In this document: one piece after another, positions 1 through 7,648 of the stretch | Layout of the letters: every line of letters starts with the position of its first letter | Position numbering within the stretch: the stretch's first letter is position 1 | IMG/VR virus record: IMGVR_UViG_3300029767_000164 | Location: 1-7,648 of that record | Reading direction: 5' to 3' (one strand) | DNA: 7,648 nt | Source: a virus | Position numbers and translations under genes: made by a program | Notes under the pieces: generated by a model | What the model saw: the letters and a program-made list of their open reading frames with translations, nothing else | Told to the model about the DNA's origin: nothing | Databases searched by the model: none

Positions 1-190
1 GACGTAAAATTAAATAACCGATTATAGCACCTAAAGGTTCCGTAATACCCGAAAAAAACGATACTATAAATGCTCTTTTTCTGCTGCCTGTTGAGTAGTA
101 TATTGGTACAGACGTAGCAATTCCTTCCGGAATATTATGGATTGCTATGGCGACAGCTATGGCAACAAGATACATAAGGTGGGTAAAAAG
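1..190 (-). CDS. zupT: ZIP-family zinc/metal transporter (ZupT-like), C-terminal fragment only; host gene interrupted by the element
   Basis: Minus-strand translation from 190 down to 2 reads [63 protein letters not shown] and runs off the left edge. The [10 protein letters not shown] ... PIYYxTGSRxxA ... SGxxEPLGAxxGYL pattern matches the second HNxPEG transmembrane block of ZupT/ZIP transporters. The frame is closed immediately upstream by TAA at 191-193, which is the recombinase stop, so the N-terminal half is absent here. Confidence 0.75.
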
Positions 191-1669
191 TTATTTATAA
201 TAGATTTTTAAGAAAATATCGCCCTCGGGAGCGGATTTTTCACGTTTATATTCAATTTTTTTCACAAAATTTTTAAGAATAGAATTTTTTTCAGCGGCTG
301 AAAGAGAGTTGTAATTGGTGAGAAGTTCACGCAAAAGGGGGAGGCGTTCTTCGATGGAAGAAGTATCTACAAGTTTAAATTTTTCGCGTTCCTGTGCTAT
401 CGTGGCATTAATTTTCTTTCGTCTATCCGAAATTGCGTTATTGCGTTCAAGAAAAAGTTCCTTTGTATACACTGCCTGTTCAAGCAAGTCATACAGGCGG
501 AGTTGTTGTTTATCAAGTTTTTTTAATTCTGTTTCCAAAGTGGCTATTGTATCAAGACAAGAAAGTTTATCCTTATTATGCGATTGACGGATATTTTTTA
601 AAGACAATTCAATATCTTTAAATTCCTTTGTAAGCACTTCAAATACCTTATCTTCTACAATACTTAATGCAGAGGCTTTATTACAACCAAGTGTACGGCA
701 ACAAAGACGGTATTTTTCAACGGTTTCGTTAGAAGTATTGATAACTATTGCCCGACCGCAATTAGCACACTTTAAAAGCCCTGCAAACGGATTTTGCAAC
801 GTGCCTGTACGCATAGGCGGTTTATATTTCAGATTTATAATATCTTGTGCTTTGTTGAACGTGTCCTCGTCAATTATTGGCTCGTGCAGTCCGGGAACAT
901 ATAACCAATCATCTTTACTCGTTTTTTCTTGCGTATTTTTGCCTTTAACAGACTTTGATTTGTTCCACACTATTTTACCTATGTAAGTATGATTTCGGAG
1001 CATACGGGCGATTGTGGTGGGGTGGAGCGGTGTATTTTTCTTGCTCAAGACACCCAAATTTGCAAGCTGACGGCTTATTGAAGTAATACCCATACTTTGA
1101 TTTACATACATATCAAATATCATACGAACATATTTCGCCTCCGGTTCATATACTTCCAACGTGTGCTTTTTATTTATTACGGCATTTCGATAACCAAACG
1201 GAGCACCCGACACAAAGCAACCGTCGTTGATTGATTTGATACGTCCGCGGTTCATTCGACGAGTGATGAATTTAAGCTCCTTACGAGCCATAAACATTTC
1301 AAATTCACTGTAATCTTCGTCATACTCGTTGTTGAGGTCATATATTTTTTTGAGCGTAATAATTTTTACATCGTTTTCTTTAAGAACGTCAAAGATTTTT
1401 TCACTGTCTGCGGCACTTCCACGCCCTAAACGGTCAAGGTCAATACATAATACCGCATCATATATGTGCGAGGGAATAGCGTCAAGCAGTTTCAGCATTT
1501 CCGTTCTGTTGTATAACATTCCTCCGCTTATCACTTCTTCAAATATGTCAATGACCGTTAAATTATTGTCCTTTGCATAAGAAAGAAGAATTTCTTTGTG
1601 ACGTTCAAGCGTTTCAAGCGGATTGTTTTCGTCCGCTCTCGATTTTCGTAAATACATGGCTACATTCAT
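191..1669 (-). CDS. Large serine recombinase (phage integrase)
   Basis: 492-aa ORF. The N-terminal resolvase-type catalytic domain has the YLRKSRAD motif (nucleophile Ser10, Arg8) and DLDRLGR. A central recombinase domain is followed by a Cys4 zinc ribbon (CANCGR ... CCRTLGC) and a C-terminal coiled-coil-like region (LETELKKLDKQQLRLYDLLEQ). The SD is AAAGGAAG, 7 nt upstream of the ATG at 1669. Confidence 0.95.
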   Translation of the reverse strand: MNVAMYLRKSRADENNPLETLERHKEILLSYAKDNNLTVIDIFEEVISGGMLYNRTEMLKLLDAIPSHIYDAVLCIDLDRLGRGSAADSEKIFDVLKENDVKIITLKKIYDLNNEYDEDYSEFEMFMARKELKFITRRMNRGRIKSINDGCFVSGAPFGYRNAVINKKHTLEVYEPEAKYVRMIFDMYVNQSMGITSISRQLANLGVLSKKNTPLHPTTIARMLRNHTYIGKIVWNKSKSVKGKNTQEKTSKDDWLYVPGLHEPIIDEDTFNKAQDIINLKYKPPMRTGTLQNPFAGLLKCANCGRAIVINTSNETVEKYRLCCRTLGCNKASALSIVEDKVFEVLTKEFKDIELSLKNIRQSHNKDKLSCLDTIATLETELKKLDKQQLRLYDLLEQAVYTKELFLERNNAISDRRKKINATIAQEREKFKLVDTSSIEERLPLLRELLTNYNSLSAAEKNSILKNFVKKIEYKREKSAPEGDIFLKIYYK

Positions 1670-1705
1670 CGTAAATCTTCCTTTCTTGTGTTATATTTCA
1701 ACTCA

Positions 1706-1735
1706 CACGCTCCGTGGGGAGCGTGACACATGTGT
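1706..1735. promoter_or_regulatory. Perfect 8-bp hairpin followed directly by a 10-bp palindrome, upstream of the integrase gene
   Basis: CACGCTCC (1706-1713) pairs with GGAGCGTG (1718-1725) around the loop GTGG. It is followed directly by the self-complementary ACACATGTGT (1726-1735). Function is unknown. Confidence 0.3.
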
Positions 1736-1758
1736 ATAAATGCACTTTATTCTGTTTC

Positions 1759-1792
1759 CTCTGCCTGTTGGAGCAGGCAGGGAAATTTTTTT
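1759..1792. terminator. Hairpin plus T-run between the zinc-ribbon gene and the integrase gene; orientation ambiguous
   Basis: The stem is CTGCCTG (1761-1767) with CAGGCAG (1774-1780) and a 6-nt loop, and a T7 run lies at 1786-1792 on the plus strand. For the minus-strand genes the U-tract is on the wrong side: an A-run precedes the stem. It is therefore only a canonical intrinsic terminator for plus-strand (antisense) transcription. Confidence 0.3.
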
Positions 1793-1794
1793 AT

Positions 1795-2031
1795 TTAAGC
1801 TGCGGTATCAATATAATCAATAACTGTTACGGTTAAGGTGCTTGAAAAAGTTTTCACGCTATCAAGAATTTTTTCAAGGGTTTCAACTGTTTCATTAGAA
1901 AAATATTCTTCTCCGCATTGTGTACATTTTTCGCAAGGTACATTTTTAATCACAACAACGAAATTATCAATTTTTTCAATATATTCTGTTGTTGTCTGTT
2001 CTGCATTGCCTCGGCAAAAGAAACAAGTCAT
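1795..2031 (-). CDS. YgiT/MqsA-N-type zinc-ribbon protein without an HTH domain (putative antitoxin, copy 1)
   Basis: 78 aa with CxxC (CFFC) near the N-terminus and NVPCEKCTQCGEEY later, the YgiT-type zinc-finger pattern. The start ATG (2031-2029) lies 1 nt after the stop of the upstream DUF4258-like gene (TAA-t-ATG). The SD AGGAGAG is embedded in the upstream gene's 3' end. Confidence 0.85.
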   Translation of the reverse strand: MTCFFCRGNAEQTTTEYIEKIDNFVVVIKNVPCEKCTQCGEEYFSNETVETLEKILDSVKTFSSTLTVTVIDYIDTAA

Positions 2032-2032
2032 A

Positions 2033-2353
2033 TTATTTCACTCTCCTTGTTTTAAAATCATTTTCCCATTTATCCGGTTCGGGATAGTATGCGGTTACAG
2101 CATACAAATATTCTTCATCATAGCCTGTTACATTATGCAACGGCATTTGTTTAAGACTTTGACCGCAAATTAAACAACTTGGAAGTCTTGCTGACTGTGG
2201 ATAGTGTTCGATTATTTCGCCTGTGAAAATACTGTTTTTGTAATCATCTTTAGATATATTACGTTCACGCAAACGCTTAAATGCGTGAAGTGACCATTTT
2301 ATTTGGTCTGATTCACATCGTTTTCGCACTTCTTCAATATCTATTTCTTTCAT
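2033..2353 (-). CDS. DUF4258-like protein (putative toxin, copy 1)
   Basis: 106 aa carrying LHAFKRLRERNIS, GEIIEHYP, PLHNV and a C-terminal WENDFKTRR. I recognise these motifs as the DUF4258 family, and they are shared with the paralog at 3154-3483. The SD AGGAGGG lies 6 nt upstream of the ATG. Confidence 0.85.
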   Translation of the reverse strand: MKEIDIEEVRKRCESDQIKWSLHAFKRLRERNISKDDYKNSIFTGEIIEHYPQSARLPSCLICGQSLKQMPLHNVTGYDEEYLYAVTAYYPEPDKWENDFKTRRVK

Positions 2354-2380
2354 TTGTATCCCTCCTTTGAATATTCATTG

Positions 2381-2406
2381 CGATTTTGTCAACGTCAACA
2401 AAATCG
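2381..2406. promoter_or_regulatory. Inverted repeat in the AT-rich gap upstream of DUF4258 copy 1; candidate operator or RNA hairpin
   Basis: CGATTTTGT (2381-2389) pairs with ACAAAATCG (2398-2406) across an 8-nt spacer that lies within a tandem GTCAAC GTCAAC (2388-2399). Further CGATTTTG / ATTTTGATA copies occur at 2466-2476 and 2449-2457. Confidence 0.3.
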
Positions 2407-2498
2407 TCAAAAATATAATTTTGAATTTGATTTATTAAAAATCGGTTATTTTGATAAATTAATTACGATTTTGATACATTTTATATATAAAAACCTCT

Positions 2499-2912
2499 TT
2501 AATACTCTGAATTTTTCAAATAGTCCATATGTCTGCGGTAACGTCTTGGGACGTTAATAGGCACGTCATAACCGATTTGTTTCAGAAATTCGGTTATAGC
2601 ATCAACACCGTCATTAAAAAATTCCGTTATACGTTTTTCTTTGTTAGTTATATTTTTGTAATTAGGCGGGCATACAAAAGTCCAATCCGCACCCTCGTTA
2701 TCAAAAATAATTCTAAAATATTCATCTATATTATATTTGTCGAGAGCCTTTGCCAATAATAAATGGTGTTCGCAACCCTCATCGAGTAATGAAACAACAG
2801 CGTGTGAGCGGTCGTGGGCAATGACTGCCATTAACGGCTCACTGTCGTGATTTATAAATTCGGTTTTCGTTTCATCACTACCGTAATATTTTATTATTTC
2901 CAATATCATCAC
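2499..2912 (-). CDS. Hypothetical protein, 137 aa, His/Cys-rich, no family recognised
   Basis: The ORF is long and protein-like and starts 12 nt downstream of zinc-ribbon copy 2. It has a His/Cys cluster (HDSEP ... HDRSHAVVSLLDEGCEHH ... FVCPP). The start is ambiguous among GTG 2912, ATG 2909 and TTG 2903, all behind AAGGAAG. Confidence 0.7.
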   Translation of the reverse strand: MMILEIIKYYGSDETKTEFINHDSEPLMAVIAHDRSHAVVSLLDEGCEHHLLLAKALDKYNIDEYFRIIFDNEGADWTFVCPPNYKNITNKEKRITEFFNDGVDAITEFLKQIGYDVPINVPRRYRRHMDYLKNSEY

Positions 2913-2918
2913 TTCCTT
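2901..2918 (-). repeat. 18-bp translation-initiation-region repeat, copy A (CAATATCATCACTTCCTT on plus; AAGGAAGTGATGATATTG on minus)
   Basis: Identical to 3472-3489. It covers the SD and first codons (M-M-I-L) of the 137-aa ORF. Confidence 0.9.
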
Positions 2919-2924
2919 ATAACA

Positions 2925-3152
2925 TCAAGCAACTTCCGAATAATTCAATTCAGCAATACCCGAAACAATATTTTTCACTTGGTTTATCAATTCTTGAATA
3001 CGAACAGAAACGTCGAATGAATATGATTTTTCGCCACATTGTGTACATACTTGAGTAGGCACGTTGTGTATAACAATAATGCAATTCCCTAAATCTGCAA
3101 TATAATTTGTAAGCTTATTTTCTGTACTTGATTTACATAATAGACATTTCAT
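2925..3152 (-). CDS. YgiT/MqsA-N-type zinc-ribbon protein without an HTH domain (putative antitoxin, copy 2)
   Basis: 75 aa with CLLC and NVPTQVCTQCGEKS, alignable over its whole length with 1795-2031. The start lies 1 nt after the upstream stop (TAA-a-ATG). Confidence 0.85.
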   Translation of the reverse strand: MKCLLCKSSTENKLTNYIADLGNCIIVIHNVPTQVCTQCGEKSYSFDVSVRIQELINQVKNIVSGIAELNYSEVA

Positions 3153-3153
3153 T

Positions 3154-3483
3154 TTATAAACCCTTCTTTCTTGTTTTAAAGTCTTTTTCCCATTCTATAT
3201 TATTCGGGAAATATTCTGTTATTATCCAAACAACATCTTCTCCTATGGCACAAACTATGTGTATATATTTTTCGCTTGATGTTTTACCGATTACGAGGAA
3301 GCTTTTGTATGGATAATCATTTGGATATTCTTCGATTATTTCGCATCGCTTTAATGCCGGAAGTATATCGGTAAGAATATCTATCGAACGTTCGTTAGCT
3401 CGTTTTAATGCGTGGTCTGTCATTTGTATCTTGTGTGCTTTACTTAGGTTGTGAATTTGTTCTAATTCATTCAATATCATCAC
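3154..3483 (-). CDS. DUF4258-like protein (putative toxin, copy 2)
   Basis: 109 aa carrying DHALKRANERSID, CEIIEEYP, YIHIV and WEKDFKTRK, which makes it a paralog of 2033-2353. The same start ambiguity applies (GTG 3483 or ATG 3480). Confidence 0.85.
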   Translation of the reverse strand: MMILNELEQIHNLSKAHKIQMTDHALKRANERSIDILTDILPALKRCEIIEEYPNDYPYKSFLVIGKTSSEKYIHIVCAIGEDVVWIITEYFPNNIEWEKDFKTRKKGL

Positions 3484-3489
3484 TTCCTT
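3472..3489 (-). repeat. 18-bp translation-initiation-region repeat, copy B
   Basis: Identical to 2901-2918, in direct orientation, 571 bp apart. The two copies bracket exactly the copy-2 DUF4258 plus zinc-ribbon pair. Confidence 0.9.
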
Positions 3490-3533
3490 GTTTTATATTT
3501 CTAAAAAATACAATTTGTTAATCTGTATAAATA

Positions 3534-4178
3534 TTAAAAACCGACTTTACATTCAACTACTTTTCCTACTATCTCAACATCGTCTTGTTTTAAGTCATAA
3601 ATTTGTGTTTGATGTTCGGGGTTATAAGATTGAGGCATAAGCATAACAATATTTTTCTCTTGCTTAAAGCGCTTTATCGTAAAAGTGTCATGATTAATGC
3701 GAACAGCGGCAATTTCGCCGTTTTCAACTGTTGGTTGTACGCGAACAGTTACAAGACTTCCGTCGGGAATGTTTGCGGCGGTCATACTATCGCCCTTTAC
3801 TTTTAAAGCAAAATATTTACCACCATGATTTAATTCTGTATAAGTATATCCCTCATAATTTTCTTCCGAAAATATCGGTAATCCTGCCGCAATATCTCCT
3901 AAGATAGGTATTCTGTGCATTACAGGATTGTATGGGACTGCTCCGTCGGGTAATGGCGGAAGTTCTTTCATTGGTACATCTTCTCCCATTAACCAAGGTA
4001 TAGAAACATTTAGAATATTTGCGTAAGTATCTAATCGTTTTTGCTTAGCTACATATTTACCTGATTTGTATTGACTCATTACACTTTCAGGAGTATCTGT
4101 AAGTCTGCATAATTCAGCGGCGCTCATACCATTATATTTTAAAGCCTCTTTTAAGCGCTCGGCAAATGTAGATTTCAT
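3534..4178 (-). CDS. Phage CI-like repressor: XRE-family HTH plus S24 (LexA/CI-type) self-cleaving peptidase domain
   Basis: 214 aa. The N-terminal HTH is LKYNGMSAAELCRLTDTPESVMSQYKSGK. A LexA-like AA-G cleavage motif lies in ILGDIAAGLP. The catalytic Ser is in KGDSM and the Lys in TIKRF. The gene is divergent from a Cro-like gene. Confidence 0.95.
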   Translation of the reverse strand: MKSTFAERLKEALKYNGMSAAELCRLTDTPESVMSQYKSGKYVAKQKRLDTYANILNVSIPWLMGEDVPMKELPPLPDGAVPYNPVMHRIPILGDIAAGLPIFSEENYEGYTYTELNHGGKYFALKVKGDSMTAANIPDGSLVTVRVQPTVENGEIAAVRINHDTFTIKRFKQEKNIVMLMPQSYNPEHQTQIYDLKQDDVEIVGKVVECKVGF

Positions 4179-4201
4179 TTTATCTCACCTCTCTTACAAG
4201 T

Positions 4202-4230
4202 ATTATACAATAAACTTTGCAAAAACGCAA
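4202..4230 (-). promoter_or_regulatory. Leftward promoter for the repressor gene
   Basis: On the minus strand: TTGCGT (-35, plus 4225-4230), a 17-nt spacer, then TATAAT (-10, plus 4202-4207). The SD AGAGGTGAG follows, then the ATG at 4178. An ACTTTGCAAAA half-operator (4214-4224) lies in the spacer. Confidence 0.6.
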
Positions 4231-4270
4231 TATTTATTTTGAAAAAAATAAAAAAACTTTGCAAAACCTA

Positions 4271-4299
4271 TTGACTTTGCAAAACCAAAGTGTTATAAT
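4271..4299 (+). promoter_or_regulatory. Rightward early promoter for the Cro-like gene
   Basis: TTGACT (4271-4276), a 17-nt spacer, then TATAAT (4294-4299). It is followed by the SD AGGAGGTG (4321-4328) and the GTG start at 4334. Confidence 0.75.
4274..4291. promoter_or_regulatory. Operator O1: ACTTTG-CAAAAC-CAAAGT palindrome overlapping the rightward promoter spacer
   Basis: Perfect 6-bp inverted half-sites separated by 6 bp, lying between the -35 and -10 of the rightward promoter. Confidence 0.6.
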
Positions 4300-4300
4300 G

Positions 4301-4318
4301 ACTTTGTAAACACAAAGT
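4301..4318. promoter_or_regulatory. Operator O2: ACTTTG-TAAACA-CAAAGT palindrome just downstream of the -10
   Basis: Same half-sites and spacing as O1, and covers the predicted transcription start region. Additional ACTTTGCAAAA half-sites lie at 4214-4224 and 4256-4266. Confidence 0.6.
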
Positions 4319-4333
4319 GTAGGAGGTGTTAAA

Positions 4334-4582
4334 GTGTACAATTATAGCAAGCTTTTAGGTAGAATTAAAGAAAAAGGTTTTACTTTAGAAGCATTAGCAA
4401 AGAAAATAGGTCTTAATGTATCTACTCTAAGCAAGAAACTCAACAATAAAAGCGAATTTCATCAAGATGAAATTAAAAAAATATGTAGAGTGATTGATAT
4501 AGAAATGTGTGATATAGGAACTTATTTTTTTTGCCAAGAGACTTTGGTTTTACAAAGTAACGTAGGTAATATAAGAAAGTAG
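4334..4582 (+). CDS. Cro-like early regulator, DUF739-type HTH protein
   Basis: 82 aa. YSKLLGRIKEKGFTLEALAKKIGLNVSTLSKKLNNKSEFHQDEIKKICRVIDI ... YFF matches the pattern I recognise for DUF739 phage regulators. The start is a GTG 5 nt after AGGAGGTG. The last 16 codons run through operator O3 and repeat copy 1. Confidence 0.85.
   Translation: MYNYSKLLGRIKEKGFTLEALAKKIGLNVSTLSKKLNNKSEFHQDEIKKICRVIDIEMCDIGTYFFCQETLVLQSNVGNIRK
4541..4558. promoter_or_regulatory. Operator O3 (distal): ACTTTG-GTTTTA-CAAAGT palindrome inside the 3' end of the Cro-like gene
   Basis: A third perfect copy of the half-site pair with the same 6-bp spacing, about 250 bp downstream of O1/O2. Confidence 0.5.
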
Positions 4583-4585
4583 GTG
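4560..4585 (+). repeat. Start-associated repeat, copy 1 (ACGTAGGTAATATAAGAAAGTAGGTG)
   Basis: The 25-nt core CGTAGGTAATATAAGAAAGTAGGTG is identical in all three copies. It has stop codons in all three plus-strand frames and ends in AGAAAGTAGGTG, one mismatch from the ideal anti-16S complement AGAAAGGAGGTG. A start codon follows 5-7 nt later. Confidence 0.9.
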
Positions 4586-4592
4586 AGGAAAT

Positions 4593-4751
4593 GTGGAAAG
4601 TGTGCAAAAACAGATTGCAAAATACATTGATAATAAAGGTATAACAATCATGCACATATCTCAGAAGACAGGAATAACATATGAGCTATTAAGATTATCA
4701 TTAAAAGCAAATCGTAAAAAAACAAGCACACAGCAAAGACTATGTGCTTGA
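4593..4751 (+). CDS. Small XRE-type HTH protein (52 aa), possibly C-terminally truncated
   Basis: Not in the ORF track because it is under 60 aa. The GTG at 4593 (alternative GTG at 4602) gives (M)ESVQKQIAKYIDNKGITIMHISQKTGITYELLRLSLKANRKKTSTQQRLCA. The IAKYID-KGI ... ISxKTGI ... L pattern is a typical short phage HTH. It sits 7 nt after repeat copy 1. An A7 run at 4716-4722 precedes an atypical tail. Confidence 0.5.
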   Translation: MESVQKQIAKYIDNKGITIMHISQKTGITYELLRLSLKANRKKTSTQQRLCA

Positions 4752-5009
4752 AGAAAAATAAATATAGAGTTTCACCGAATTTACGGAGTGCAAACTATAC
4801 GTTACCGTATAGCAGGGCGATATTGTCACCTCGTTAATTGAATTATATTCAGACTTGAGTTGCTTAACGGCAGAATCAAGTACTGAATCATTGAATGGTT
4901 TAATTACATCTTGTATCTTTGAAAGTGATGGATATTGTGTTGAATCAAGTGGTTTAGACATTGTTGCTATTCCTGAAAGTCTGATTTCATCGTTTTTAAT
5001 CGTAGACAT
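4740..5009 (-). CDS. Hypothetical 89-aa ORF (weak call)
   Basis: The sequence is more protein-like than the overlapping plus-strand ORF 4855-5055. However, the SD is poor, the C-terminal tail is low-complexity, and no homology was recognised. Confidence 0.3.
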   Translation of the reverse strand: MSTIKNDEIRLSGIATMSKPLDSTQYPSLSKIQDVIKPFNDSVLDSAVKQLKSEYNSINEVTISPCYTVTYSLHSVNSVKLYIYFSSST

Positions 5010-5023
5010 CCAATTTGTTACTC

Positions 5024-5167
5024 CGAAAAATCGTGGTTATGTCATTTCTGCATAACTCTCATAGTCGCCTATGAGTTCAGACTGTGCCTTCAACCTGTGG
5101 GAAAGGTTGCTCCGTGTCCAGTCGTTACACCTCCCCGTAGTGGGTTTGGCTCGGCGTTGTCTATATT
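5024..5167 (-). ncRNA. Candidate structured RNA or 5' leader transcribed leftward from the 5174-5202 promoter
   Basis: A GC-rich island in AT-rich surroundings. Hairpins: CTCATAG/CTATGAG (5058-5064/5069-5075); CAACCT/AGGTTG (5091-5096/5104-5109) nested inside GACTG/CAGTC (5080-5084/5119-5123); and GTTATG/CATAAC (5036-5041/5051-5056). On the minus strand the last hairpin is followed by a U5 run (plus A5 at 5024-5028). No ncRNA class was recognised. Confidence 0.3.
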
Positions 5168-5173
5168 TATTAC

Positions 5174-5202
5174 ATTTTAGCACAATATGGTTATTTACGC
5201 AA
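5174..5202 (-). promoter_or_regulatory. Leftward extended -10 promoter (cassette A)
   Basis: The minus strand reads TTGCGT - 17 nt - TAAAAT, with TGc immediately upstream of the -10 (TGcTAAAAT). Confidence 0.55.
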
Positions 5203-5209
5203 GAACAAA

Positions 5210-5240
5210 AATCGACGTAGGTAATATAAGAAAGTAGGTG
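5210..5240 (+). repeat. Start-associated repeat, copy 2 (AATCGACGTAGGTAATATAAGAAAGTAGGTG)
   Basis: This 31-nt sequence is identical to copy 3. The ATG at 5247 follows after 6 nt. Confidence 0.9.
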
Positions 5241-5246
5241 GGAATT

Positions 5247-5378
5247 ATGAAAGATGAAAAAATAATTTTTGAAGTATCGGTAAGTAAAAAAGAACTATCT
5301 AAACTATTAGATCCGTTACAGACAGTTCTTTTAAATGGAATATTAGAAAAGTTGGCAAATGCTATTTCTTCTCAATAA
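5247..5378 (+). CDS. Small hypothetical ORF, 43 aa
   Basis: MKDEKIIFEVSVSKKELSKLLDPLQTVLLNGILEKLANAISSQ. It starts 6 nt after repeat copy 2. The first 16 nt (ATGAAAGATGAAAAAA) nearly match the start of the ORF after copy 3, and a GAAGTATCGG (EVS) block is shared. Confidence 0.45.
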   Translation: MKDEKIIFEVSVSKKELSKLLDPLQTVLLNGILEKLANAISSQ

Positions 5379-5533
5379 AGGTTTTGTGATACTCATTAAG
5401 AATGTCTAAAGTAACACTTGCAGATGTTTGTTTCATAAGTAATGCAAAATTAGTATAGGGATCACATTCATCCGGAGTTTTACTATACTTCTCTAATATG
5501 ATTTTAGAAAATTCTTCAAAAGACGTTGACATT
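5362..5533 (-). pseudogene. Small leftward ORF with an ideal promoter, SD and ATG, but a stop after 5 codons; the +1 frame continues for 52 codons
   Basis: AAGGAGGTG is followed 6 nt later by ATG (5533-5531). The reading is ATG TCA ACG TCT TTT TGA. Shifting +1 on the T5 run (plus A5 at 5518-5522) gives MSTSFEEFSKIILEKYSKTPDECDPYTNFALLMKQTSASVTLDILNEYHKTFIEKK (56 aa), ending at TAG 5364-5362. Confidence 0.4.
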
Positions 5534-5556
5534 ATAATCACCTCCTTCCGAGATGA

Positions 5557-5584
5557 TTATAGCACAAATGGTTAAAAAATACAA
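5557..5584 (-). promoter_or_regulatory. Leftward extended -10 promoter (cassette B)
   Basis: The minus strand reads TTGTTT - 16 nt - TGcTATAAT. The block TAACCAT(A)TTGTGCTA(A/T)AAT is shared with the cassette A promoter. Confidence 0.55.
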
Positions 5585-5613
5585 TCGACGTAGGTAATAT
5601 AAGAAAGTAGGTG
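5583..5613 (+). repeat. Start-associated repeat, copy 3
   Basis: Identical 31-mer to copy 2. The ATG at 5620 follows after 6 nt. Confidence 0.9.
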
Positions 5614-5619
5614 AGAAAA

Positions 5620-5781
5620 ATGGAAGATGAAAAAGAAAATGAATTAAAAGATGAACTAAAACTGCTGGCAATGCCATTAATCAAATTTCTAAAAGAAAAT
5701 TATAATCCATATTGCAAAGTAGAAGTATCGGAAAAAGGTGTAAAAATAGTTGGAGATGTTTGCTTAATACCAATTAAATAA
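5620..5781 (+). CDS. Small hypothetical phage protein, 53 aa
   Basis: MEDEKENELKDELKLLAMPLIKFLKENYNPYCKVEVSEKGVKIVGDVCLIPIK. It has a strong SD supplied by the repeat and a plausible small alpha/beta protein sequence. Confidence 0.6.
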   Translation: MEDEKENELKDELKLLAMPLIKFLKENYNPYCKVEVSEKGVKIVGDVCLIPIK

Positions 5782-5839
5782 GGTACAAAGTAATAGGACA
5801 AAAAATGAAATACATAGATTAAAGCAGGAGGTGGAAATC

Positions 5840-6073
5840 ATGGAGGCGGAAAAGACCAAAAAGGCAAGAAAGCCGAGAAAGCAACCTAAAGTACACGTTG
5901 AAGTGGTAGGCAGTTGGAAAGACAGACCCGCTTATGAACAGTTTCAGCATTGGAAACCTCATATAGAAAATATGTATCATATGCTTGGGTATGGTGACGT
6001 AACGGTTGAGCCGTCGCAGGAGATGATTGACGAGTACAATGCTATTCAAGCAAACAAGGAAAAAGGAGCTTAA
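5840..6073 (+). CDS. Hypothetical protein, 77 aa, basic N-terminus
   Basis: The ORF track starts this ORF at GTG 5831, but that GTG lies inside the SD AGGAGGTG (5826-5833). The ATG at 5840, 6 nt downstream, is the likely start: MEAEKTKKARKPRKQPK... Confidence 0.7.
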   Translation: MEAEKTKKARKPRKQPKVHVEVVGSWKDRPAYEQFQHWKPHIENMYHMLGYGDVTVEPSQEMIDEYNAIQANKEKGA

Positions 6074-6093
6074 TGCTCCGAAGATAGGACAAG

Positions 6094-6194
6094 CTCACAG
6101 GCAGACAAGGGCTGTCCGCGTATTATCCGTAAAATAGTTAGACTTTCCCTAAGAGTTTTAATCCTTTTGCGGACAGTTCCTGTGTGCCTGTGAG
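6094..6194. other. 101-bp long imperfect inverted repeat (26-bp arms, 49-nt loop)
   Basis: CTCACAGGCAGACAAGGGCTGTCCGC (6094-6119) pairs with GCGGACAGTTCCTGTGTGCCTGTGAG (6169-6194). 22 of 26 positions are complementary, including perfect 10-bp outer and 8-bp inner blocks. No T-run follows. Confidence 0.6.
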
Positions 6195-6216
6195 GTAAGA
6201 GAAATGAGGAAAACAA

Positions 6217-6330
6217 ATGAACACAATAGGAATTGCGCTGATTAGTTTCGGTATCGGACTAATCATAAGTTGGAAATTGGCAGAAAGGGACATAAAAAAT
6301 GCTAAAAAGAAAACCAAAAACAGAGAATGA
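6217..6330 (+). CDS. Small membrane peptide, 37 aa (one TM helix plus a Lys/Arg-rich tail)
   Basis: MNTIGIALISFGIGLIISWKLAERDIKNAKKKTKNRE. The SD GAGGA lies 6 nt upstream. Not in the ORF track because it is under 60 aa. Confidence 0.5.
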   Translation: MNTIGIALISFGIGLIISWKLAERDIKNAKKKTKNRE

Positions 6331-6412
6331 GAAAACGGAAGAATATTTCCACAGAGAAGTATTTCCGATGATTAACGCATTCGCCAAGGAGTGCAGAGGA
6401 CACGCAAAATAG
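6299..6412 (+). CDS. Small hypothetical ORF, 37 aa (weak), overlapping the previous ORF by 32 nt
   Basis: MLKRKPKTENEKTEEYFHREVFPMINAFAKECRGHAK. The SD is weak (GGGA). The overlap region is full of A-runs. Confidence 0.3.
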   Translation: MLKRKPKTENEKTEEYFHREVFPMINAFAKECRGHAK

Positions 6413-6440
6413 AAAATAACAGTGAAAGGAATATTTTCAA

Positions 6441-6611
6441 ATGAACAAATATGTAATAATGACGGGCAGAGATGATGTAGTGGTTTTAAACGCCGATGAC
6501 AACAAGTCGGTTAAGGCATACATAGCAAAAGGATACGGCATAACAAATCGTATCAAGTCAAAGCACCCGCTTGAAATGAGTGTTGCGAAGATTATCAGTG
6601 GAGATAATTAA
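6441..6611 (+). CDS. Small hypothetical protein, 56 aa
   Basis: MNKYVIMTGRDDVVVLNADDNKSVKAYIAKGYGITNRIKSKHPLEMSVAKIISGDN. AAAGGA lies 10 nt upstream. Confidence 0.55.
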   Translation: MNKYVIMTGRDDVVVLNADDNKSVKAYIAKGYGITNRIKSKHPLEMSVAKIISGDN

Positions 6612-6617
6612 ACGGCT

Positions 6618-6899
6618 ATGACGAAATACGAATTTGACGATTGGGCGTGCATAGACGAGGACTTTGCTTGTCGTGATGACGACTTCGCCTGTATCGACGA
6701 TGATTGGGCGTGCATAGATGATGATGACGCAGTATGCGACGATGAACGCGACGGACTTACGGAAGAAGAAGCCGACGCATACGAAAAGGAAAAAGCGTGG
6801 TATGACCTATTCAAAGAGGTATTGCAGTATCCGTACAGTTACGGATTATCTTGGGGAATAGTTTTAGCATACAGACAACCTATAAAATATCAGAATTAG
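6618..6899 (+). CDS. Extremely acidic protein (93 aa) with a Cys-containing heptad repeat
   Basis: The N-terminal 59 residues include 26 Asp/Glu against 5 Lys/Arg. A D-[WF]-A-C-[IR]-D-[DE] unit occurs four times, followed by a degenerate DDAVCDD. The C-terminal part is aromatic and hydrophobic (YPYSYGLSWGIVLAY). Confidence 0.75.
   Translation: MTKYEFDDWACIDEDFACRDDDFACIDDDWACIDDDDAVCDDERDGLTEEEADAYEKEKAWYDLFKEVLQYPYSYGLSWGIVLAYRQPIKYQN
6639..6743 (+). repeat. Five in-frame tandem 21-bp units encoding the heptad repeat
   Basis: Unit 1 is GATTGGGCGTGCATAGACGAG and unit 4 is GATTGGGCGTGCATAGATGAT; they differ at 2 of 21 positions. Units 2, 3 and 5 are more diverged. Confidence 0.85.
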
Positions 6900-6911
6900 G
6901 AGGTGAGAAGT

Positions 6912-7061
6912 GTGGCAGATGAGAAAACGGCGGAAATACTGAAATTGTATAGCGATTTAACACCGAATGAAAAGCATTTGGTAGGTGTTTTCGTAAATGC
7001 GATGATACTTAGTCGCAATAAAAATGACCGTCAGAGCGGCAACTCAATAACGGTCAAATAA
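6912..7061 (+). CDS. Small hypothetical protein, 49 aa
   Basis: The GTG start lies 6 nt after AGGAGGTG (6898-6905). The product is (M)ADEKTAEILKLYSDLTPNEKHLVGVFVNAMILSRNKNDRQSGNSITVK. Confidence 0.55.
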   Translation: MADEKTAEILKLYSDLTPNEKHLVGVFVNAMILSRNKNDRQSGNSITVK

Positions 7062-7065
7062 AAGC

Positions 7066-7086
7066 ACATAGATTATTAATCTATGT
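7066..7086. other. 21-bp palindrome / hairpin (9-bp arms, 3-nt centre)
   Basis: ACATAGATT att AATCTATGT, lying between two plus-strand genes. No U-tract follows. Confidence 0.4.
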
Positions 7087-7118
7087 CAACATTATATCAC
7101 AGAAAGGAATAAAAATCA

Positions 7119-7487
7119 ATGCAAATTGTAATTAGGCTTGAACAGAAAGATTTTGAGGGTAACAAGGAAGTATTCGACCGAATGTACGGATTATGTTCGG
7201 TACTCAACAAAAAGACGGGACCTGTGGAGATGACAAAGGCGGAAGTTGAGAAATCGGCGAACGTTGTAAGAGAGGAACAGACGTCAGACGATACGCCGAC
7301 AGAGGATAATACCGCCGAAGTGGAATACACAATAGAGGAAGTACGCAAGGCATTCGGTGAATATGCGAAGTCGCAGGGCAGAGATAAGGCCAAGGGACTG
7401 CTTCAAGAAATGGGTTACGACAAAGTAACGGAAATACCGCCTGAGCGATACACAGAGGCGATGACGAGAATAGGAGATGTGAAGTAA
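7119..7487 (+). CDS. Hypothetical phage protein, 122 aa, acidic centre
   Basis: This is the longest ORF in the region and its codon usage is consistent with neighbouring plus-strand genes. Its stop overlaps the next start (TAATG at 7485-7489). Confidence 0.8.
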   Translation: MQIVIRLEQKDFEGNKEVFDRMYGLCSVLNKKTGPVEMTKAEVEKSANVVREEQTSDDTPTEDNTAEVEYTIEEVRKAFGEYAKSQGRDKAKGLLQEMGYDKVTEIPPERYTEAMTRIGDVK

Positions 7488-7648
7488 TGCCGGAAGAACA
7501 CGCAAAACTCTCGGCGTCGGGGTCAAAGAAGTGGATAAACTGCCCCGCGTCAATCGCAATGGAAAGCAAATTCCCCGACGAAAGCAGTGAATATGCAAAA
7601 GAGGGAACTACCGCACATTCATTGGGTGAGGCAAAGCTGAAATTAGCT
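7487..7648 (+). CDS. PD-(D/E)XK nuclease-superfamily phage protein (DUF2800-like), N-terminal 54 codons; continues beyond the window
   Basis: MPEEHAKLSASGSKKWINCPASIAMESKFPDESSEYAKEGTTAHSLGEAKLKLA. The HAxLSASGSxxWxxCPxS ... YAxEGTxAH pattern is the N-terminus I recognise for DUF2800 phage nucleases. The frame is open to the end of the window. Confidence 0.7.
   Translation, partial: MPEEHAKLSASGSKKWINCPASIAMESKFPDESSEYAKEGTTAHSLGEAKLKLA

Follow-up and report, generated by a model that had tools for sequence, protein, structure and literature searches.

A repeated, putative translation-initiation linker between small early-gene cassettes in temperate phages of uncultured gut Clostridia

Why should a temperate phage carry the same 25 nucleotides, without a single change, at three places in its early region, each time immediately ahead of a start codon? 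The question is raised by positions 1 to 7,648 of the IMG/VR virus record IMGVR_UViG_3300029767_000164. This 7,648-nucleotide stretch, referred to below as the window, corresponds to a prophage's left end and covers the lysogeny and early region of a temperate phage whose host is an uncultured member of the gut Clostridia. The 25-mer, CGTAGGTAATATAAGAAAGTAGGTG, which we call J, occurs on the plus strand at 4561-4585 (J1), 5216-5240 (J2) and 5589-5613 (J3). We consider it probable that J is a shared translation-initiation linker of the rightward early operon, and that its repetition enables homology-driven exchange of gene cassettes.

A preliminary description of the window had listed the three sites as identical, and they are exact matches. 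No further copy was found in the window at up to three mismatches, and the number expected by chance was 0.00 in 200 dinucleotide shuffles. The stretch common to all three copies is 32 nt long, starting at 4560, 5215 and 5588. The six additional bases reported upstream of J2 and J3, AATCGA, are present as well; the shared sequence there is in fact a 61-nt repeat pair (plus strand, 5201-5261 and 5574-5634, 87% identity) that starts some 15 nt ahead of J and reaches codon 5 of the open reading frame (ORF) following it. The three-copy arrangement recurs in three independent IMG/VR contigs (L001, L008 and L015 in our numbering of related loci) and is thus not an assembly artefact.

The surroundings of the three copies differ. 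J1 lies at the end of a cro-like gene and leads a truncated helix-turn-helix (HTH) ORF, D1. J2 follows UB, the upstream region of the leftward gene M89, and leads D2, an ORF of 43 aa. J3 follows UC, the upstream region of the leftward gene M59, and leads D3, an ORF of 53 aa. All three plus-strand frames of J contain a stop: TAA at position 7 in one, TAG at 20 in another, and TAG at 3 together with TAA at 12 in the last. The three-frame stop is on its own only mildly unusual, being found in 4.7% of random 25-mers of the same composition and in 1.5% of the window's own 25-mers; none of the nine other plus-strand gene leaders of the window (0/9) contains one. The proposal that J closes upstream ORFs holds for J1, within which the last seven codons and the TAG stop of the cro-like gene fall. 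It does not apply to J2 and J3, into which no plus-strand ORF reads.

The 3' part of J, AGAAAGTAGGTG, is one base off AGAAAGGAGGTG, in agreement with the single mismatch to the 16S complement claimed earlier (the host 16S rRNA is assumed). Paired with the canonical Bacillota 16S 3' end, this Shine-Dalgarno (SD) sequence has a predicted duplex energy of -15.3 kcal/mol, again with the host 16S assumed. Among the other ribosome sites of the window, the strongest reach -14.1 to -17.5 kcal/mol and the weaker ones -6 to -10 kcal/mol. Start codons follow each copy after 5-7 nt, as had been described: ATG 4591 (5 nt) and GTG 4593 (7 nt) after J1, with the HTH protein encoded in the GTG frame, and ATG 5247 and ATG 5620 (6 nt each) after J2 and J3. 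The 5' half of J shows no obvious pairing with 16S rRNA (predicted at -4 kcal/mol). Rich in purines and with only one C, J contains the GTAGGT-N11-GTAGGT direct repeat noted before. No self-complementarity or internal RNA structure was predicted for it; in the J1 context alone, predicted pairing of the SD with a U-run of cro would sequester it (unpaired probability 0.10). Scanning the entire window against Rfam (E<=1) gave no match.

The repeat described from the window is real, but J2 and J3 turned out to belong to something larger that the description had not seen. They form the right arm of a conserved bidirectional module of about 113 bp, combining a promoter and ribosome sites. Around J3 the UC + J3 intergenic module (5530-5622) begins with CAT, the start of M59 (5530-5532), and continues in order with a minus-strand ribosome site, AGGAGGTG (5539-5546), a leftward promoter, AATCGA, J3, a spacer and ATG 5620. 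The promoter reads TTGTAT-17-TGCTATAAT (5556-5584), with the -10 element TATAAT at 5556-5561, TGC at 5562-5564 and the -35 element TTGTAT at 5579-5584. UB carries a homologous promoter (5174-5202), with -10 TAAAAT and a TGC extension at 5174-5182 and -35 TTGCGT at 5197-5202, and this accounts for the similarity upstream of J2 and J3. Both promoters were read by eye; our consensus scan requires four of six matches in the -35 element and lists neither of them, the -35 of the UC promoter having three. Elsewhere the module recurs at 93-100% identity beside at least seven leftward and at least six rightward genes in mixed combinations. It appears to comprise one minus-strand promoter and two divergent ribosome sites with variable genes on both sides, and a typical cassette is a convergent pair, in which a small J-led rightward ORF faces a leftward ORF that the next module leads. 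The minus-strand unit containing M89 ends at an intrinsic terminator (4723-4750, 12-bp stem) whose T-run is on the minus strand only. Transcription from a rightward pR-like promoter could therefore read through it, and the rightward genes would need only a ribosome site.

How J is distributed among relatives bears directly on its role. About 90 related phage contigs were compared overall, and J was scored at up to three mismatches in a sample of 59 related loci plus the window, most of the loci having been fetched by an exact J match. This sample contained 79 copies, one to three per phage at varying spacing. J was present in 16-21 IMG/VR contigs and 43 human-gut metagenome contigs; a 23-mer scan of the GTDB species representatives found none. 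It was confined to a single stretch per contig, including seven contigs of 37-45 kb, and lay only between cro and a conserved hairpin/early-gene segment, in a zone spanning 0.3-2.5 kb after cro. Its position relative to genes was the one seen in the window: every copy lay on the strand that codes for the early operon, and of the 77 copies scored, 76 were followed by an ATG after 5-7 nt, the exception having only a possible GTG 3 nt off.

Both sides of J vary. Upstream we distinguished about five flank types: UA, the end of the window's cro allele; UD, the end of a second cro-like allele whose product terminates in '..IMNIFFC'; UB; UC; and one other. Downstream there were at least 11 different gene starts, belonging to an XRE-type HTH gene, ORFans of 43, 49, 53 and 88 aa, a phrog_643 regulator, an excisionase-like HTH gene, a double zinc ribbon, a Bro-N gene and another HTH gene, among others. 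The table of upstream against downstream flanks is well filled, with many combinations, and in the segment map the minimal phage layout is cro, J, one gene and the hairpin. J itself stayed constant across three different cI/cro (immunity) types. In at least 11 loci the homology of the immunity region to the window ended at 4586-4593, the edge of J, and the ends of high-scoring segment pairs were about 4-fold enriched in J zones.

Apparent products of recombination were found among these loci. In L005 and L019, UB and J are followed by ggaattATGAAAGATGAAAAA joined directly to GAAAATGAA, so that the J2 spacer and first codons are fused to the body of D3; the M89-UB and D3-g77 segments of both loci are 99-100% identical to the window. 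These loci carry exactly the product that a J2 x J3 crossover within the 61-nt repeat, in the 3' part of the copy around J2, would yield on deletion of cassette 2. Two further loci (L009 and L011) contain small gene-conversion-like patches in the same stretch. Other crossovers lie at the left edge of J, where CG, CA or TG is found according to the upstream type; inside ATAAGAAAG, giving a partial J in which UC and CGTAGGTAATATAAGAAAG are joined to GAAAAT; after the spacer, with UB keeping its 'G' whichever gene comes next; and in codons 3-5. Crossover positions are thus spread over about 60 nt. The variation of cassettes between copies anticipated by the preliminary description was borne out, both by the combinations of flanks and by the deletion of cassette 2.

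The left ends of cassettes tell a different story, best seen in D1. This 5' remnant of an XRE-type HTH gene (4593-4751, plus strand, 52 aa) is cut short near 4715 at the start of the M89 unit, and the homology break at the D1/M89 junction maps to 4713-4716. An intact D1 of 63 aa was found only in L024 (oriented ~5198-5390), and in L013, L027, L036 and L040 the gene is cut at a different point. We take these truncations as a sign that cassettes are joined illegitimately at their left ends.

J proved to be one member of a family of linkers. Less biased sampling was done through the cro palindrome, the start of a J-led gene (D5) or UC. Each half of J is replaceable without a change of flanking genes. 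An alternative 5' half, gttgaaaagttgataaATAAGAAAGTAGrTG, precedes D5; after UC we found the variant ACATGTATAAGAAAGGAAAAT, and many UC sites lack GTAGGTAA altogether and have ACATGTATAAGAAAGG. A further variant is a 12-nt tandem duplication. Phages found through the hairpin loop mostly lack J, and several of them carry a second allele, J', which reads ..ACAAAAATCA GCGTAAATGAAAGGAAGTG.. followed by 5-9 nt and ATG and is present in two to four copies per genome. It was also seen as ..ACAAAAATCAGCGTAAATGAAAGGAAGTG.. in L152, L161, L162, L166, L175, L179, L002, L026 and others. J' occurs after a third cro allele and other genes, all of whose products end in '(D)EQKSA', and after UB- and UC-like promoters. 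The '(D)EQKSA' tail of several unrelated upstream genes is encoded by the linker. J'/J hybrids exist, and J and J' are found together in one genome. Most variants of the linker retain stops in two or three frames.

The earlier proposal of a stop-and-restart cassette junction is supported by the constant placement of J relative to genes, the shuffling of flanks, the deletion product and the stops kept in other linker alleles. We propose that J would close any incoming reading frame and supply a strong, purine-rich, near-perfect SD with a start codon 5-7 nt further on, so that the small early genes would each be translated from the pR transcript regardless of the upstream DNA. The linker would at the same time act as a portable patch of homology, 25 nt long by itself, 31-61 nt with its flanks and about 113 bp as the module at J2 and J3. 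Homologous or homeologous recombination at the linker, between copies in one genome or between a phage and a related phage or prophage, would add, delete and swap small cassettes between cro and the replication genes. Translation from J, the use of pR as promoter, lysogenic expression of the leftward genes and the choice of recombination enzymes are inferred. Homology-driven exchange is favored over a site-specific system or a dedicated binding site because crossovers are scattered, either half of the linker is replaceable and J/J' hybrids exist.

Several observations weigh against this proposal. Boundaries without a repeated linker (5780-99, 6080-6119, 6200-19, 6600-19 and 7120-39) are equally rich in breakpoints, and J is thus not needed for mosaicism as such. 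Full J was present at only about half to three quarters of the equivalent sites in the unbiased samples, and its apparent invariance is inflated because most loci were retrieved by an exact J match. A length of 25-31 bp is close to the minimum for efficient homologous recombination. No single-strand annealing recombinase was recognised near the exonuclease, DUF2815-like, PolA and primase genes in the ORF list, which was not profile-scanned. The proposed translation from J, transcription and recombination all rest on sequence analysis. What marks J out is ectopic exchange and variation in cassette number. As a separate observation, breakpoints between 4200 and 7200 of the window fall at almost every early-region gene boundary (also at 7020-39), and not at J alone.

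J might instead be primarily a cis-regulatory target, bound by a protein on RNA or DNA or by an antisense RNA, that co-regulates the J-led early genes, with shuffling a secondary effect. The identity of the three copies would fit this, as would a conserved 5' half that has no obvious pairing with 16S rRNA and the predicted sequestration of the SD in the J1 context, which suggests regulated access. The UC promoter also points left, with no terminator predicted between M59 and J2, and an RNA antisense to J and complementary to all copies is therefore probably made. However, either GTAGGT can be replaced with the same flanking genes in place, as shown by the partial J after UC and the alternative 5' half before D5, and J' fills equivalent positions and can occur alongside J in a single genome. 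These findings count against the translational-regulator site, including the GTAGGT repeat, that had been suggested earlier. J also lacks internal structure and any Rfam match. It is unchanged across three CI/Cro types and unrelated to their ACTTTG-N6-CAAAGT sites, and we rejected it as a CI/Cro operator. We regard a primarily regulatory role as unlikely. Nor does it seem likely that the repeats are passive leftovers of a local duplication of an ancestral small gene with its ribosome site, having no part in exchange. D2, D3 and D5 do have common first codons (M-K/E-D-E-K, MKFKK), the repeat enters the coding sequence, and mosaic breakpoints are common at repeat-free boundaries. Yet the bodies of the downstream genes are unrelated (HTH, zinc ribbon, Bro-N, excisionase-like, phrog_643, ORFans), and so are the upstream flanks; many flank combinations pass through one linker, and together with the J2 x J3 deletion product they already contradict strict vertical co-inheritance.

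Quite improbable, in our judgement, is a role in transcription, with the 5' half of J serving as an UP element or activator site of the leftward promoters, or with J holding a rightward promoter as do the PeSL cassettes discussed below. Read on the minus strand, J lies directly upstream of the -35 elements of UC and UB, exchange of its 3' half leaves the 5' 19 nt attached to UC, and the hexamers TAATAT and TATAAG occur within it. But J also follows two cro alleles that lack a leftward promoter, and many UC sites lack GTAGGTAA. By eye, no consistent -35 was found 16-18 nt away in the UA, UB, UC and UD contexts, and the consensus scan was at chance level (9 found, 9.2 expected); on these two grounds a plus-strand promoter inside J was rejected. 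We give even less credence to J being the site of a dedicated site-specific cassette system, whether an integron-like array or one served by a serine recombinase or other enzyme. J-bounded cassettes do stand in arrays of one to four at one locus, and a large serine recombinase is encoded at 191-1669. Against this, crossover positions vary across about 60 nt, J shows neither an inverted-repeat nor an attC-like architecture, the left boundaries of cassettes are illegitimate, with D1 truncated at two different points, and the recombinase lies at the prophage end next to a split zupT, as expected of an integrase.

A broader version of the linker proposal seems doubtful to us, although somewhat less so than the rival explanations. 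The linker family (J, J' and UC + J) may be a selected 'plug-and-play' system that sets up recombination-compatibility groups among gut Clostridia phages, in effect an integrase-free cassette array, and adds an antisense coupling of life-cycle states. In such a system the leftward moron promoter would transcribe through the preceding J and yield an RNA complementary to every identical J site. In the lysogen, leaky translation of all J-led early genes would be silenced in trans; in the lytic cycle, read-through from pR would silence the morons.

The closest functional analogue of J is the promoter-early stem-loop (PeSL), a mobile regulatory cassette of T4-type phages (Arbiol et al. 2010, PMC2839356; Comeau et al. 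2014, PMC4122927). PeSLs number about 50 per genome in a virulent myovirus and provide a precedent for linker-bounded cassette exchange (PMC2839356). Like them, J is a short conserved intergenic sequence with the upstream stop in its AT-rich 5' part and an SD and start at its 3' end. It is located in a hyperplastic, ORFan-rich region, and it bounds insertions, deletions and replacements between close relatives. The single chimeric element left after excision in L005 and L019 mirrors the PeSL example of ORFan192. The UC + J module, too, brings its own promoter, but this points the opposite way, to the leftward gene. Unlike a PeSL, J has no demonstrable sigma-70 promoter reading into the downstream gene, the good promoters (UC and UB) facing the other way, and no stem-loop terminator; the terminator at 4723-4750 is at the far end of the cassette and acts on the minus strand only. 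J is also limited to one to four copies at one locus and belongs to a temperate Clostridia phage.

The preliminary description had compared J with the start-associated sequences (SAS) of cluster K mycobacteriophages, which are a looser analogue. SAS have a 13-bp consensus, GGGATAGGAGCCC, with up to two deviations (Pope et al. 2011, PMC3203893). There are 11-19 copies across the non-structural half of the genome, and about half have an upstream 17-bp imperfect inverted repeat, forming the extended version (ESAS) (PMC3203893). The likeness is limited to position. Both elements are asymmetric and kept in one orientation, the SAS 3-7 bp before mostly ATG starts and J 5-7 nt before its starts; both combine an SD core with conserved positions unable to pair with 16S rRNA; both sometimes contain the upstream stop and precede genes of different families. 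It fails for sequence, copy number and distribution: J is unrelated to the SAS consensus, is present in one to three copies (J' in up to four) in one zone, and has no ESAS inverted repeat. SAS are not described as recombination joints, and the separability of its halves argues against J being a single recognition unit.

Linker or boundary sequences are reportedly part of the modular theory of phage evolution as set out by Botstein in 1980 and Clark et al. in 2001. J resembles such linkers in being a short conserved boundary sequence that would offer homology for exchanging equivalent or accessory modules between related temperate phages. It differs in being repeated within one genome and in coinciding with a complete translation-initiation region, and because of this repetition ectopic exchange and a variable number of cassettes are also possible. 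Relaxed homologous recombination between temperate phages has been described (De Paepe et al. 2014, PMC3945230). Integron arrays are similar in that small, mostly promoter-less ORFs with a recurring separator sequence lie downstream of a fixed promoter. Here, however, there is no integron integrase, the sole recombinase being the serine integrase at the prophage end, and no attC-type imperfect palindrome; crossovers are scattered, and the cassettes hold an oppositely oriented gene with its own promoter.

The remaining features of the J zone are mostly small genes of its cassettes. M89 (4740-5009, minus strand) is a moron-like ORFan. Its relatives have an identical C-terminal 26 aa, terminator, promoter and leader, and in at least eight loci (e.g., L007, 262-840) the N-terminal 63 aa is swapped for an unrelated 74 aa, giving a 100-aa protein. 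UB, which comprises the leader and promoter of M89 (5010-5215, minus strand), is 98-100% conserved in at least 17 loci; the leader of about 160 nt is G+C-rich, folds better than shuffles (z = -3.37) and has no Rfam match. D2 (5247-5378, plus strand) is convergent with M59 and overlaps it, and its ratio of nonsynonymous to synonymous polymorphism (pN/pS) of 0.48 is a weak purifying signal drawn from sequences that vary little. M59 (5362-5532, minus strand), an ORFan of 56 aa from ATG 5532, has a perfect AGGAGGTG ribosome site and too little variation for a coding test. D3 (5620-5781, plus strand) matches phrog_4621 (E=5.7e-12). Searches of the cassette genes by Pfam, PHROGs and PADLOC gave hardly any result for M89, M59, D2 and the majority of the leftward genes; the sole function matches among cassette genes were DUF2513, zinc ribbon, Bro-N, phrog_4621 and phrog_643.

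On its right, the variable J zone is bordered by a conserved hairpin element (6094-6194) and adjacent conserved DNA. The hairpin has 26-bp imperfect inverted arms and a 49-nt loop, folds at -51.6 kcal/mol (z = -7), and its loop is 93-100% conserved. It lacks a T-run and is therefore not an obvious terminator. The element is also present at L017 and L005, is precisely missing from many relatives, where ctcacagg is joined to ataaagagagg, and is inverted between identical outer flanks in L055 (2727-2827), one among about 50 copies examined. The hairpin may represent a small element that moves or inverts, or the L055 inversion may be an assembly artefact. Further right are small early genes and a replication module in which the exonuclease was identified by a match; the labels DUF2815-like, PolA and primase are provisional, coming from a reading of the ORF list and not from profile scans. 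One of the ORFs in this part (6618-6899, plus strand) encodes an acidic protein of 93 aa in which 'DDWACID / DDFACID' units are repeated three times in tandem, with no family match.

The left boundary of the zone is set by the immunity region. A CI-like S24 repressor gene (3534-4178, minus strand) is followed by the pR-like promoter (4271-4299, plus strand), TTGACT-17-TATAAT with TG, which has 11/12 consensus matches and presumably drives cro and all J-led ORFs. The Cro-like repressor gene (4334-4582, plus strand; DUF739 / HTH, Pfam PF05339, E=5e-15) provides the upstream flank of type UA. Between cI and cro, ACTTTG-N6-CAAAGT palindromes at 4274-4291 and 4301-4318 form the operators. A third operator-like palindrome of matching sequence, ACTTTGGTTTTACAAAGT (4541-4558), falls within the 3' tail of cro; it ends 2 nt short of J1, and the pR region lies about 250 bp upstream of it. 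It may be a site for repressor looping or a roadblock. The last ~15 codons of cro run through this palindrome and J; other cro alleles end sooner.

At the far left, the window opens with a fragment of a host ZIP zinc-transporter gene (a split zupT; 1-183, minus strand) that is 89-93% identical to metagenome-assembled genomes of uncultured Clostridia. The host was taken as Clostridia on the strength of these matches, the GTDB representatives having given no J. The large serine recombinase gene (191-1669, minus strand) stands beside the split zupT, and the enzyme probably integrates within a ZIP-family gene, the prophage adjoining its fragment (window 1-190). Two paralogous pairs of genes for a DUF4258 protein and an MqsA/YokU-like zinc-ribbon protein (1795-2353 and 2925-3483, minus strand) lie between integrase and repressor; they probably encode toxin-antitoxin systems, and relatives have one pair, both or a hybrid. 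A megablast search of the whole window against the INPHARED phage genomes gave no match.

J does not represent a new class of element; it is a fresh example of known phage gene shuffling. Two routes are usually invoked for the turnover of small accessory genes (morons, anti-defence and exclusion genes): illegitimate joins made at random and then sorted by selection, or homology at conserved gene boundaries. The J lineage would be a clean natural example of the boundary-homology route in temperate phages of uncultured gut Firmicutes, with its intermediates visible as a deletion product, hybrid linkers and truncated neighboring genes. It would extend the PeSL idea beyond T4-type phages and suggests that a ribosome-binding region alone can serve as portable homology. 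The linker flags a hypervariable accessory zone in which lysogeny- and early-expressed ORFans may be found, and it could provide a handle for inserting cassettes in phage engineering.

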